Shown: positions 18,134-21,982 of the stretch, piece after piece
How positions within the stretch are numbered: the first letter of the stretch is position 1
How the letters are laid out: each line of letters starts with the position of its first letter
NCBI GenBank assembly: GCA_048885525.1
Contig: JBHLLP010000003.1
Location: 74,851 to 138,850 of the forward strand
Direction: 5' to 3'
DNA length: 64,000 nucleotides
Source of the DNA: Candidatus Hermodarchaeota archaeon
Lineage (GTDB): Archaea; Asgardarchaeota; Lokiarchaeia; Sigyniarchaeales; SOKP01
The notes under the pieces: generated by a model
The model's input: the letters and a program-made list of their open reading frames with translations, nothing else
The model's database searches: none
Told to the model about the DNA's origin: nothing
Position numbers and translations under genes: made by a program

Positions 18134-18337
18134 TTAAGAAAGAACTTCTAGAATCTTAGTAAGAATTCTTGCTTTACCACCTGTAGATTGAAGTAAAGTT
18201 TTCCCACACACTAAGCATTCTACATCTGTGGCAGAACAACCAAATATGATTTGTTGATTTCCACAGTTTAAACATTTAACGCGTAAAAACCTGCTTTTTG
18301 GTTGTGGAATAAGTTCTTTCTCTTTTTTATTAGTCAT
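18134..18337 (-). CDS. rps27e: 30S ribosomal protein S27e
   Basis: [20 protein letters not shown]...CLVCG..L..STGGKA. Confidence 0.96.
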
Positions 18338-18351
18338 AAGTATTCACATTT

Positions 18352-18633
18352 TTATACTTCAGTTAATTCAAGGCGCTTAACGCGATATGATTTAGCATAT
18401 TGTTTTTTACCGCATTCAGTACATTCTAATAATGGAGTTGATTTCCTATTTAATTTTGCATTTTTATGGAAAATCTCCTTAGGAAATGAGCCGTATCCCG
18501 CCTTTTTCCTTTCTAATCTTCTCCTTCCATGATTGAGCATTCTTTCCTTCCCTTTTTTATAAAGCGAGACACTTTGCCTCGTATGTGATCTACAAGATGG
18601 ACAATAACGGTTGACTGTTTTAGGGTACTTCAT
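18352..18633 (-). CDS. rpl44e: 50S ribosomal protein L44e (eL42)
   Basis: MKYPKTVNRYCPSCRSHT...GRRR..RKKAGYG...ECTECGK; upstream of S27e. Confidence 0.95.
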   Translation of the reverse strand: MKYPKTVNRYCPSCRSHTRQSVSLYKKGKERMLNHGRRRLERKKAGYGSFPKEIFHKNAKLNRKSTPLLECTECGKKQYAKSYRVKRLELTEV

Positions 18634-18741: not shown

Positions 18742-18771
18742 ATTTAAATCTTATTTACATAATGTTAATAA
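18742..18771 (+). promoter_or_regulatory. Candidate pyrB TATA box (ATTTAAAT) followed by an imperfect 21-bp inverted repeat
   Basis: TTATTTACAT-A-ATGTTAATAA at 18751-18771 (one mismatch), between the TATA-like element and the pyrB ATG. Chance occurrence in AT-rich DNA is possible. Confidence 0.3.
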
Positions 18772-18794: not shown

Positions 18795-19712
18795 ATGTTC
18801 AAAGAGAAATTTAGTGAAGGAATAATTAGTGCTAAGCAATTTGATAGAGAAGATATTGAATATATTTTGAAAAAGGGGAAGGAAATGATTAATACTAAAA
18901 ATTCAAATCTTCTTCAAGGAAAAATCTTAGCAACATTATTTTTTGAACCTTCTACTCGTACTCGTCTAAGTTTTGAATCTGCAATGTATAGATTAGGCGG
19001 AAATGTAATCGGATTCCATTCAGGAGATGTTTCTTCAATTAAAAAAGGTGAGAGTATTGCTGATACTATAAGAACAGTAGAAAATTATAGCGATTGTATA
19101 GTAATGAGACATTCGCTTGAAGGTGCTGCGAAGATGGCAGCGAAATTTACGAGAATTCCGATTATTAATGCTGGTTCTGGAAGTGGAGAACATCCTACTC
19201 AAGCATTATTAGATTTATTGACAATAACAGAAGAATTAGGTCAATTAGACGGATTGAATATAGGATTAATGGGTGATTTAAAATACGGTAGAACCGTACA
19301 TTCACTAGCAATACTTTTATCAAATTTTGAAGTTAATATTTATTTCATAAGTCCAGTAGAATTAAAAATGAGAAATAGGGATAAAGATTTTTTACAGCAA
19401 CGACATGTTAAATACAAAGAGATTACAGATTACAGGAAAATATTGAACATTTTAGATGTTCTTTATATGACGAGAATTCAAAAAGAAAGGTTTGTTGATT
19501 CAGAAGAGTATGAAAGAATTAAAGGTTTTTACATATTTCAACAGGAAGATCTTAAAGAAACAAAAGATGATTTTAAGTTATTACATCCATTACCAAGAAT
19601 CACAGAGATTTCTCCTGATGTTGATAATTCAGAAAAAGCAGTTTACTTTAAACAAACTTTCTATGGAATTCCAATGAGGAAGGCACTCCTAGCGGAATTA
19701 TTGACAGAATAA
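18795..19712 (+). CDS. pyrB: Aspartate carbamoyltransferase catalytic subunit
   Basis: FFEPSTRTRLSFE, KGESIADT, HPTQALLD, GDLKYGRTVHSL, TRIQKER, HPLPR. Confidence 0.97.
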   Translation: MFKEKFSEGIISAKQFDREDIEYILKKGKEMINTKNSNLLQGKILATLFFEPSTRTRLSFESAMYRLGGNVIGFHSGDVSSIKKGESIADTIRTVENYSDCIVMRHSLEGAAKMAAKFTRIPIINAGSGSGEHPTQALLDLLTITEELGQLDGLNIGLMGDLKYGRTVHSLAILLSNFEVNIYFISPVELKMRNRDKDFLQQRHVKYKEITDYRKILNILDVLYMTRIQKERFVDSEEYERIKGFYIFQQEDLKETKDDFKLLHPLPRITEISPDVDNSEKAVYFKQTFYGIPMRKALLAELLTE

Positions 19713-19730: not shown

Positions 19731-21713
19731 TTAGATTAAGCATTCACTTAAAGAAATTGTACCTATTTTCGAATGAAATAACGTTTGTATAAATTTTTGA
19801 AACGACATTTCTTTTGGTTTTTTTTCAATAAATAAAGTCCCACCATTAAAAATTTCATCAAATTTTTTGATTAAAGTAATTCTTCTAAGCAGGGAAAGAT
19901 TTGATTCTCTTCTGATTATCCTTGTGGAATATGCATTAATCTTTGGATTAGTTTTTACCATATTATTATACCAACAGTCCTTTAAATAGGTATCTTTATG
20001 AGGTTGACTTAGGATATAATTACTATTCTCAGCTTGATTTTTCTCATCGATAATTTTTCTCATTAAAATTAAGATTTTTAATGCGAAATCTTCGCTATTT
20101 TCTGTTCTGTCAAGTTCTATTCCACAATGGTTTAAAATTGCTTCATTTAAACCAAAAAAGCTAATGGATTTTATTGCATCTTTAAATATTTCAATCGAAC
20201 TTTTGTTATAAATCCTTGTAGCTATGGATTCCCATTGTTTAAGAGAATTTAATTTCTTTTGTACCAATGACTCCTTAAATTTAAACAATTCGAATACAGA
20301 GTTTAATTTATGTTGTAATAGATCGAAAAATAAATCGTCATTTTGCTTTGCTTCTACTGAAATCAAGTGTAAATTAACTAAAATCTTATCTAAAATAACT
20401 ATATCATTCTTGGGATTTTGTATCTGAATTAGAGATGAATTTAATAGACTAGAATAATCCTTATTGTAAATAATTAGCTGATCTTTATTATCATTACTGA
20501 GAAGATTTTTTATGATAAAGCTACTCAAATCTGATGAAAAAATTTTAGAACACTCAAAAATAAGTAGTGGTTTTATGTGATTATTCTTCTGTTTTTTTAA
20601 AGAATTAAGAAAAATTTTATCTAATTTAATTTGATTTAAAAATTCCTCTGATGATTTTTCATTGTAATTAAACTCTAATGATAAATGTGATTTACCATCA
20701 TTATAGAGGGTATTAAATACGAGAATTTGAGAAGTAAAGAAATTATAATTGGATGATTGTATTTCTGGGAATTCTAAATAAGGAATAAATTGAGTATTAA
20801 AATCACTCAGAAGTAAATCCTCAGAATAAAACTGTTTTAATTTTTGTAGTAAATCTAAAAAATTCATGATTAAACTTGTATATTCTGTAGCATTTTTAAT
20901 TCTCTGTGGCTCATTTGAATAAATTTTTGAAAGATAATTAATCAAGGTTTTTGAATTTATATACAAACTTAATGGTCTTAAACCCCAGTAATTTAAATGA
21001 AGTAAAGCAATTTCTCCCGTTAAATATAAATCTGCCAGGTTTTTTGGTAAGAGGTTTAAAAGTAAAAATTGCTCTGAAACGTCAGAACCTAATTTTTTAA
21101 TAAATTCTTCTGGAGTAATCTCAGAATTTTTCGAATTAAATAGTTTAAATGCTTCAAATGGAGGAGTTCCTAGCCGAGTTAATTTGTGTCTTACTTCTTC
21201 TAAACCATTCTCTAATAGTATTGCATTTATATACTCCCGCATTAATGGTGCAGTCATATATTCTATATTTGTTCTAGATAAACGCTCTTCTACCTCATGA
21301 GCTATTTGCTTTGCTAAATAACGCTCCAATTCACCCTCTCTCACTAAATATTCCTCAATTTTTTTTATATCGAATACTTCTTTAGAGTATTTTGAAGTTC
21401 GGATCATCAGCGCCTTATTTTTTTTATTTAAAATTTGCTCAATAGATAAAATCCTCTCGATAATTTGCTCTCCTAAATATGTAATTGAATATCCATCTTC
21501 TAATGATATAATTAAATCACTTTTCTTTAACGTGTTTAAATGGAAAGATAAGTTGCCAGAACTAAGATCAGTTCCAAAAATCTCTTTTTGAAGCTTTGAA
21601 AACGATAACGGAGTAGAACTATATTTTAATTTTTTTAAAATATCAACCCTTACCTTTTGACTCAGTGCTTTTAGTTGCTTTTCTAATATATTTTGATTTT
21701 TGTCGGTGTCCAA
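19731..21713 (-). CDS. ArsR-like winged-HTH + ATP-cone + degenerate anaerobic (class III) ribonucleotide reductase NrdD-like fusion
   Basis: wHTH (LKALSQKVRVDIL...LSFSKL...SGNLSFHLNTL...YSITYLG); ATP cone (IRTS...FDIKKI...LVREG...MTAPLMREYINAILLENG); NrdD-like segments TRLGTP, LPKNLAD..LTGEI, VNL..I..EA, SISFFGLNE, KKF...NGG. No glycyl-radical loop. Confidence 0.8.
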   Translation of the reverse strand: MDTDKNQNILEKQLKALSQKVRVDILKKLKYSSTPLSFSKLQKEIFGTDLSSGNLSFHLNTLKKSDLIISLEDGYSITYLGEQIIERILSIEQILNKKNKALMIRTSKYSKEVFDIKKIEEYLVREGELERYLAKQIAHEVEERLSRTNIEYMTAPLMREYINAILLENGLEEVRHKLTRLGTPPFEAFKLFNSKNSEITPEEFIKKLGSDVSEQFLLLNLLPKNLADLYLTGEIALLHLNYWGLRPLSLYINSKTLINYLSKIYSNEPQRIKNATEYTSLIMNFLDLLQKLKQFYSEDLLLSDFNTQFIPYLEFPEIQSSNYNFFTSQILVFNTLYNDGKSHLSLEFNYNEKSSEEFLNQIKLDKIFLNSLKKQKNNHIKPLLIFECSKIFSSDLSSFIIKNLLSNDNKDQLIIYNKDYSSLLNSSLIQIQNPKNDIVILDKILVNLHLISVEAKQNDDLFFDLLQHKLNSVFELFKFKESLVQKKLNSLKQWESIATRIYNKSSIEIFKDAIKSISFFGLNEAILNHCGIELDRTENSEDFALKILILMRKIIDEKNQAENSNYILSQPHKDTYLKDCWYNNMVKTNPKINAYSTRIIRRESNLSLLRRITLIKKFDEIFNGGTLFIEKKPKEMSFQKFIQTLFHSKIGTISLSECLI

Positions 21714-21982
21714 TTTAATTATTGACCCTGTTCTATTTCTTTAATTCTGTTTAACTAAATTATATGATTAATAGTTATATAAAAATTTAGGAATCTCCTA
21801 GCCGGTTGATGAATAAGGATAATATGTAGGTGATATCAGACCAAAATTTTAAAGAAACAATTTCATGATAAATCTTTTTTTTTAGAAATTAAAAATTGGA
21901 CTACAATTTAATTTAATAAAAAAGAAATAAATATTTTTTATATTAGATATTTAATTTTAAAATCAAGTAAAATGGTAATTTA

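Follow-up and report, generated by a model that had tools for sequence, protein, structure and literature searches.

A degenerate class III ribonucleotide reductase fused to a winged helix-turn-helix, a candidate nucleotide-sensing regulator of DNA-precursor supply in archaea

The 64,000-nucleotide (nt) stretch of contig JBHLLP010000003.1 from Candidatus Hermodarchaeota archaeon (assembly GCA_048885525.1; hereafter the window) encoded a protein, P0001, in which a winged helix-turn-helix (wHTH) and an ATP-cone preceded a degenerate copy of NrdD, the class III ribonucleotide reductase (RNR). We lean towards reading this protein, called pseudo-NrdD below, as a dimeric nucleotide-sensing transcription regulator and a functional analogue of bacterial NrdR; as such, it would probably be the regulator of DNA-precursor supply that has been missing in archaea. 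An earlier reading made from the letters of the window alone (the sequence-only reading) had proposed an RNR repurposed as a regulator, and this proposal was supported by the domain architecture, the catalytic loss, the purifying selection, a conserved adjacency to pyrB or RNR genes and a conserved CCGACAAAA box. From these lines of evidence we infer DNA binding, nucleotide sensing, the pairing of the protein with the box and the direction of regulation. No published description of a family combining HTH, ATP-cone and pseudo-NrdD was found in the literature, and new evidence on it comes from its linkage to pyrB, the selection on each domain, the predicted dimer and the box conserved at nrdD, nrdJ and its own gene.

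Domain architecture and loss of radical chemistry

Pseudo-NrdD retained the fold of the class III enzyme. The NRDD profile (PF13597) matched amino acids (aa) 196-655 onto profile positions 4-504 of 562 (E 1.7e-17, 63.8 bits vs a cut-off of 26.2). The AlphaFold2 model, built on an alignment of 145 relatives, reached a predicted local distance difference test (pLDDT) of 87.4 and a predicted template-modelling score (pTM) of 0.80. Its best 36 Foldseek matches in the Protein Data Bank (PDB) were all class III RNRs (E 1e-19 to 1e-11, TM 0.5-0.66), with P. copri 8P28, S. thermophilus 9DCA, T. maritima 4COL and T4 1H79 among the matched structures, which bore out the NrdD fold assigned in the sequence-only reading.

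The ArsR-like wHTH assigned to the N-terminus in that reading was recovered by the DUF7347 profile (E 7e-11, 42.6 bits vs a cut-off of 27.6), while the HTH_20 and ArsR HTH_5 scores fell slightly under their cut-offs. The first 95 positions of the family profile matched PDB structures of ArsR, CzrA and HlyU (E 6e-5 to 1e-3), and the predicted model displayed the order helix-helix-helix-strand-strand. The ATP-cone, also assigned earlier, aligned residue for residue with the cone of the intact NrdD of the same genome. Among 59 family members, Pfam matches were obtained for the ATP-cone in 46 (E <= 1e-3, best 7.7e-10), for DUF7347 in 57 and for NRDD in 56. Residues R105, F114, E126, R159, E160, R175, R180, G182 and P184 were invariant in the cone and its linker. 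The start codon occupied the same position in all orthologues, as GTG, TTG or ATG; at this site (window 21711-21713), GTG or TTG was found in 30/30 orthologues of the genus and never ATG, which occurred in other genera.

Catalytic motifs were compared with those of the intact NrdD of the genome, P0122 (714 aa, contig C23), and of a second true NrdD, P0250. P0122 carries RPFC, SQCCRKF, EQPSES, CLEC...CPQC and RVTGY. In the window protein, GDIHVH was replaced by GEIALLHL (HxHD to A-L-L-H), the first-strand RPFC by RPLS and EQPSES by SQPHKD, the finger loop SQCCRKF was deleted, and the chain stopped ahead of the Zn ribbon (CLEC...CPQC) and the glycyl-radical loop (RVTGY). The losses picked out by eye in the sequence-only reading (HIHDL, the Cys after RP, the finger-loop Cys, TPAES and the C-terminal stop) all held in the alignment with P0122, and deletion of the NxN flap (NAN in P0122) came in addition to them. 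In PcNrdD, Cys416 of the finger loop is the radical initiator, with Cys171 in the first strand and Gly711 as the further radical residues; Asn114 and Asn116 form the flap, and HxHD binds the substrate triphosphate (PMC11226230).

These losses extended to the whole family. Among 140 HTH-fused relatives, the finger-loop Cys was found in none (0/140) and the first-strand Cys in a single one, and the NxN flap was deleted in all (140/140). The Asn of the NLPR strand (N447, within aa 251-660) was retained in 137/140, and QPH was conserved within the clade of the window. This clade displayed neither Zn ribbon nor Gly loop, whereas the wider relatives kept the ribbon in 48/77 and the loop Gly in 22/77. 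On the NCBIfam NrdD equivalog TIGR02487, the window protein scored 52.8 bits vs a cut-off of 326.35 and 440.8 bits for the real NrdD, P0122. As judged from its motifs, pseudo-NrdD has lost every element of the radical chemistry and is incapable of glycyl-radical ribonucleotide reduction.

Family conservation, predicted dimer and shared box

Relatives numbered 481 by word-indexed search and 713 by exhaustive search, some of the latter being true NrdDs. Full-length relatives ran into the hundreds and came from both Asgard and TACK archaea. The best 120 of the 481 were all of about 650-665 aa, with full-length coverage and 53-75% identity. A second tier (20-36% identity, 640-890 aa) showed the same order of wHTH, cone and NrdD-like body; it usually kept the CxxC...CxxC ribbon, sometimes an R-x-x-G remnant and never the cysteines. 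By name, these second-tier sequences came from Jord/Freyarchaeia, Baldrarchaeia, Odinarchaeia, Culexarchaeum, Bathyarchaeota and Conexivisphaerales. Full-length HTH+cone matches (E < 1e-55) came from 11 families among the genomes that GTDB places in the phylum, the remaining families giving only cone-level matches or none. In the GTDB family of the window, the HTH+cone profile was matched by 132/134 genomes, about 8 of them at the cone-only level (E near 1e-20).

The ratio of non-synonymous to synonymous substitution rates (dN/dS; median pairwise, Nei-Gojobori, up to 175 pairs with dS <= 1.2) was 0.13 for the wHTH, 0.075 for the ATP-cone, 0.08 for the interface helices and 0.28 for the rest of the barrel, these values being rough because dS was near saturation (about 1). 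Mean pairwise identity was lowest in the barrel (55% vs 82-86% in cone and interface). Every domain is under purifying selection, none drifting neutrally, and evolution was slowest in the DNA-binding domain, cone and dimer interface. Within the genus, NrdD was 83-91% identical, vs 55-75% for pseudo-NrdD.

Two copies of the pseudo-NrdD core (aa 186-660) were predicted to pair, with an ipSAE of 0.78 vs 0.00 for the best control; the three dimer runs shared at least 80% of contacts, with a partner pLDDT of at least 81. In calibration, the pass mark of the tool was reached by 20/30 solved homodimers and by 1/23 proteins solved as single chains. The predicted interface (residues 188-221, 241-246, 276-295, 321-332 and 487-493) fell on the best-conserved helices, and in NrdD the specificity site is located at the dimer interface (PMC11226230). 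Pseudo-NrdD is predicted to form a homodimer through an NrdD-type interface; as NrdD dimers have already been solved, the pass may reflect the memory of the model and is to be taken as likeness, not proof.

A box shared by the nrdD and nrdJ promoters was first derived by comparing promoters within the window genome and then followed by phylogenetic footprinting. Its copies were CCGACAAAAT at 78 nt before nrdD, and a tandem pair CCGACATAATT-TCGACGAAAAA at 263 nt and a proximal GCCGATAAAATT at 36 nt before nrdJ. In the nrdD leader, CGACAAAA formed an island of invariance in 30/30 orthologues of the genus. It was present in 4/5 other genera of the family, as (G/C)CCGACAAAA(A/T) at -83 to -86 of nrdD, with a tandem pair in genus g2, and was not seen at nrdD of one genus (g4) among the five checked. 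In the nrdJ leader, both the tandem pair and the proximal copy were conserved in 25/25 orthologues of the genus.

The box also lay within the first codons of the pseudo-NrdD gene itself (Table 1). NCC GAC AAA was found at codons 3-5 in 30/30 orthologues of the genus and in 18/20 genomes of seven other genera (48/50). Codon 3 was TCC, GCC, CCC or ACC, so that the residue varied (Ser, Ala, Pro, Thr) while 'CC' was constant, and the Asp codon of the box was always GAC, against a background of 15% GAC among Asp codons and 11% C-ending codons at comparable sites. Because the residue varied while 'CC' and the rare GAC persisted, the comparison points to nucleotide-level constraint on these codons. 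Genome-wide, CCGACAWAA (W, A or T) occurred in 28 copies, 13 of them outside long open reading frames (ORFs). One copy was placed 205 nt before orc1/cdc6 and was retained in about 11/25 orthologues.

Other candidate elements were set aside. All-against-all 11-mers among seven promoters gave mostly noise, and only the CCGAC word of nrdD and nrdJ survived footprinting. The invariant ATATCACCYRNATATTA upstream of the pseudo-NrdD gene recurred just once elsewhere in the genome and showed no connection with genes of nucleotide metabolism. The palindrome TTnACATAATGTnAA of the pyrB promoter was rejected as an operator, as just one other intergenic ACATNATGT occurred in the genome, before a periplasmic-binding-protein gene, which makes no regulon; no connection of this palindrome to the pseudo-NrdD regulator was found. 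No convincing motif was common to the regulator promoter and the adjacent RNR promoter in four loci of distant lineages (L074, L076, L078 and L064), and Rfam gave zero matches in the nrdJ, nrdD, cdc6 or own-gene regions.

Gene neighbourhood and the real reductases

The window features are collected in Table 1. The convergence on pyrB and its short gap, noted in the sequence-only reading, were confirmed, and TIGR00670 established the identity of pyrB.

Table 1. Features of the pseudo-NrdD locus (positions are those of the window)
Feature	Position	Strand	Remarks
Whole ORF, wHTH + ATP-cone + pseudo-NrdD (P0001)	19731..21713	-	660 aa, TTG start
aa 1-98, ArsR/SmtB-like wHTH (Pfam DUF7347)	21420..21713	-	H58 invariant; L59 and L62 nearly so
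aa 99-185, ATP-cone and linker	21159..21419	-	Most conserved part of the protein
aa 186-250, NrdD-type dimer-interface helices, then first barrel strand	20964..21158	-	HxHD degraded to A-L-L-H
aa 251-660, remainder of the NrdD-fold barrel	19734..20963	-	Without first-strand and finger-loop Cys; stops before Zn ribbon and Gly-radical loop
ACCGACAAAA box over codons 3-6 of the pseudo-NrdD gene	21698..21707	-	Candidate operator or RNA element
Putative transcription factor B recognition element (BRE)/TATA box CCTAAATTTTTATATAA of the pseudo-NrdD gene	21775..21790	-	Near-invariant in 30 orthologues; presumed function
Upstream element ATATCACCYRNATATTA of the pseudo-NrdD gene	21820..21836	-	Invariant
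pyrB (aspartate carbamoyltransferase catalytic chain)	18795..19712	+	Convergent, 18-nt gap; TIGR00670 364 bits vs cut-off of 237
Conserved palindrome TTACATAATGTTA in the pyrB promoter	18755..18767	+	30 nt before ATG

Across about 10 lineages, pyrB was adjacent to the pseudo-NrdD gene in three arrangements, and a class II or III RNR gene was adjacent in others. A convergent pyrB was found at 28/30 loci of the genus, in genus g2, in families f9 and f11, in a Baldrarchaeon and in Culexarchaeum, where the 3' ends overlapped. On the same strand, pyrB lay upstream in families f3 and f10 and downstream in family f6; in f10, an Asgard family, a true NrdD was also adjacent. Conexivisphaerales displayed a convergent class I/II RNR with a 5-nt gap, and in one unplaced lineage a class II RNR on the same strand followed the gene after 480 nt. 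In Bathyarchaeia, the gene was followed by a 433-aa C-terminal piece of NrdD with all catalytic motifs and then by a convergent pyrB-pyrI. No nucleotide gene was adjacent in f21, f26 and Jord/Freya.

Adjacency to pyrB or to a true RNR gene was thus shared by lineages of Asgard and TACK archaea, and the pairing with pyrB is old and has outlasted rearrangement. A regulator would fit this distribution better than a fixed protein partner, because the neighbours are different nucleotide-synthesis enzymes. The sequence-only reading had offered, as an alternative, a partner of the true NrdD; this is disfavoured, the adjacent reductase being of class II in some lineages.

The dNTP (deoxyribonucleoside triphosphate) supply of the genome is provided by the intact NrdD, NrdG and a class II RNR, all encoded away from the window. 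NrdG was found on contig C62 (TIGR02495, 157.8 bits vs a cut-off of 131), in agreement with the earlier remark that no activase gene was nearby. The class II RNR (B12-type, contig C27:30885-33131), found via its N-terminal ATP-cone, carried RNR_Alpha and RNR-II insertion domains.

Several observations were made on the surroundings of these genes. The Bathyarchaeial 433-aa ORF (metagenome contig L074:7144-8445), directly after pseudo-NrdD, corresponded to a true NrdD reduced to its C-terminal two thirds; it carried NSQCCR, QTPAES, CRKC...CNRC and RITGY, lacked the N-terminal third and may be a split or partial reductase. In the window, the genes for ribosomal proteins L44e and S27e (18134-18633, minus strand) occupied the position of pyrI in other lineages, pyrI being here on contig C14. 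A second shortened NrdD paralogue, P0123 (contig C57:709-2514, plus strand; 601 aa), was devoid of wHTH and finger-loop Cys and stopped before the Zn ribbon; its ATP-cone differed very little from the cone of the real NrdD, and a Gtr1/RagA-like GTPase gene lay downstream. Copies of this kind (46-55% identical to NrdD) occurred in only 7/41 genomes of the genus.

Oversized frames were seen for NrdD (about 1190 aa in genomes G214, G204 and G182) and NrdJ (980-1250 aa in G224, G228, G206, G182 and G205), with matches breaking at fixed residues (about 182 and 455). Fixed break points together with enlarged frames suggest that inteins are inserted in the real reductases of some species. The region of about 260 nt upstream of nrdJ was almost invariant across 25 species and had no Rfam match; this region could represent a leader RNA of a new kind or a closely packed array of operators. 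The contig of the class II RNR also carried a heliorhodopsin gene (C27:17705-18544; PF18761, E 4e-85).

Proposed regulator and its alternatives

In the mechanism proposed, pseudo-NrdD would be a one-component transcription regulator derived from a catalytically dead class III RNR. The NrdD-like body would dimerise via the ancestral interface and thereby display a pair of ArsR-like winged helices at the N-termini. The ATP/dATP or (d)NTP state would be read by the ATP-cone, which has been kept, perhaps together with the former specificity site of the interface. In real NrdD and NrdR, cones act by a nucleotide-driven shift of cone position or oligomeric state; here, likewise, the nucleotide state would alter one or the other and so switch DNA binding. 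Likely targets would be nrdD, nrdJ and the gene itself, via the CCGACAAAA-type box, with the neighbouring pyrB or RNR gene as a possible further target in many lineages. More boldly, and held only tentatively, a whole RNR might have been turned into a master regulator that governs the supply of DNA precursors across Asgard and TACK archaea, binding CCGACAAAA-type boxes at nrdD, nrdJ, its own gene, in many lineages pyrB, and possibly orc1/cdc6.

Like NrdR, pseudo-NrdD fuses a DNA-binding domain to an ATP-cone. NrdR boxes lie upstream of RNR operons and often of the own gene; here, a box was common to nrdD, nrdJ and the 5' end of the own gene, with a tandem pair in the nrdJ leader, and pseudo-NrdD is the candidate binder. 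Unlike NrdR, it begins with an ArsR-like wHTH without CxxC pairs rather than a Zn ribbon, and its cone, of archaeal NrdD type, is followed by a 470-aa NrdD body (660 aa in total), with no homology outside the cone. By sequence, it appears to be an analogue and not a member of the NrdR family. Pseudo-NrdD has the fold of NrdD (PcNrdD 8P23, 9DCA, 4COL, 1H79) and, like it, an N-terminal cone with linker; the same dimer interface is predicted, and the NLPR-strand Asn and GLNEA have been kept. It differs in the extra N-terminal wHTH and in the absence of both radical Cys, NxN flap, HxHD, Zn ribbon and Gly-radical loop. Its N-terminal 95 aa resemble ArsR/SmtB proteins, with an ...S(F/Y)HLxxL... motif in the recognition helix; unlike these, no metal-site cysteines were evident, and the sensor would be a 560-aa RNR-derived module.

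Several points weigh against a regulator acting through this box. The definition of the box is post hoc, having been drawn from the promoters of nrdD and nrdJ, and its relaxed form CGAC[AG]WAAW, rejected as non-specific, also precedes GlnA, a methyltransferase and unknown genes. It was absent from the pyrB promoter, and it is a single half-site-like word rather than the palindrome expected of a symmetric dimer. All copies were sense-oriented within a transcribed leader or coding region, which an RNA-level signal also fits. Another regulator, a 233-aa IclR/ArsR/TrmB-like wHTH protein (contig C5:40526-41227), has a tandem pair TTCGACATAATCCGACAATATA upstream of its gene, near C5:41406, and could be the true binder. 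Convergent pairs are an unusual layout for a regulator and its target, and the f21, f26 and Jord/Freya lineages have no nucleotide gene beside pseudo-NrdD. The ATP-cone (PF03477) of the window protein reached 19.3 bits, under the cut-off of 25.8. To these are added the roughness of the dN/dS values and the possible memory behind the dimer prediction.

The C5 regulator gene with its tandem boxes and the copy before orc1/cdc6 would also suit a gene that belongs to a dNTP/replication regulon without being its regulator, the box being bound by another factor (the C5 wHTH protein or Orc1/Cdc6). Pseudo-NrdD would then work through proteins, binding or buffering RNR or aspartate carbamoyltransferase (ATCase) in a nucleotide-dependent manner, and its wHTH would mediate contacts with proteins or have some other role at DNA. 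The neighbours are indeed enzymes (pyrB or an RNR), and the conservation of the NrdD-type interface makes a heterodimer with NrdD conceivable. However, the adjacent reductase is of class II or III depending on lineage, with pyrB in most, which speaks against a single fixed protein partner, and the wHTH is under strong purifying selection with a conserved ArsR-type recognition-helix motif, so that this explanation is considered rather unlikely. Reading of CCGACAAAA in mRNA leaders or first codons, by pseudo-NrdD or another factor, to control translation or stability would account for the sense orientation of all copies and for the long, highly conserved nrdJ and nrdD leaders. ArsR-type wHTH domains are DNA binders, however, the leaders had no Rfam match and the nrdJ promoter is probably located downstream of the distal tandem pair (about -263), which makes action at the RNA level very unlikely.

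Alternatively, the barrel might have acquired another role. It might be an enzyme, or else a 'trigger enzyme' that binds a small molecule and doubles as a transcription regulator, and its radical residues would then have been lost in the shift to a new chemistry. Lack of these residues need not abolish catalysis in an RNR-like barrel: GlyXL, a distant anaerobic-RNR relative that is devoid of them, was kept for another function as an enzyme of glycine synthesis (PMC13759103). GlyXL belongs to a far more distant family, without wHTH or cone; its partner has an ACT domain, and its role in metabolism has been demonstrated. The purifying selection on the barrel, the near-constant NLPR-strand Asn and the QPH of the clade would agree with a new function. 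Yet the barrel was the least conserved part of the protein, the triphosphate motif and the flap were gone, no co-operonic enzyme partner was conserved and the C-terminus ranged from Zn ribbon to truncation across the family; a new chemistry is considered unlikely. That the gene is a pseudogene in decay, or an artefact of annotating a broken nrdD, as the database name 'anaerobic ribonucleoside-triphosphate reductase' might suggest, was refuted and is given practically no credence. The frame of about 660 aa is uninterrupted in well over 100 genomes, dN/dS was well below 1 in every domain and an intact nrdD is encoded elsewhere in the genome, in line with the earlier description of the ORF as long and uninterrupted.

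A regulator derived from RNR would fill a gap in archaea. We know of little on how archaeal RNR genes are controlled. NrdR is described as rare in archaea (PMC9110341), so that the niche of such a regulator would be open there. The family provides a concrete candidate RNR regulator in Asgard and TACK archaea, with a predicted operator and predicted targets. Databases name its members either 'anaerobic ribonucleoside-triphosphate reductase' or HxlR/ArsR regulator, and the former name would mislead metabolic reconstructions. Intermediates have survived, with the Zn ribbon and remnants of the Gly loop in the wider relatives and a shortened protein in the clade of the window. If the regulator reading is true, a large radical enzyme has been recycled as the allosteric sensor of a DNA-binding domain. 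Asgard archaea are the closest prokaryotic relatives of eukaryotes; should the master-regulator proposal hold as well, dNTP synthesis, pyrimidine synthesis and replication initiation would be coupled in Asgard and TACK archaea through an independently evolved counterpart of NrdR.

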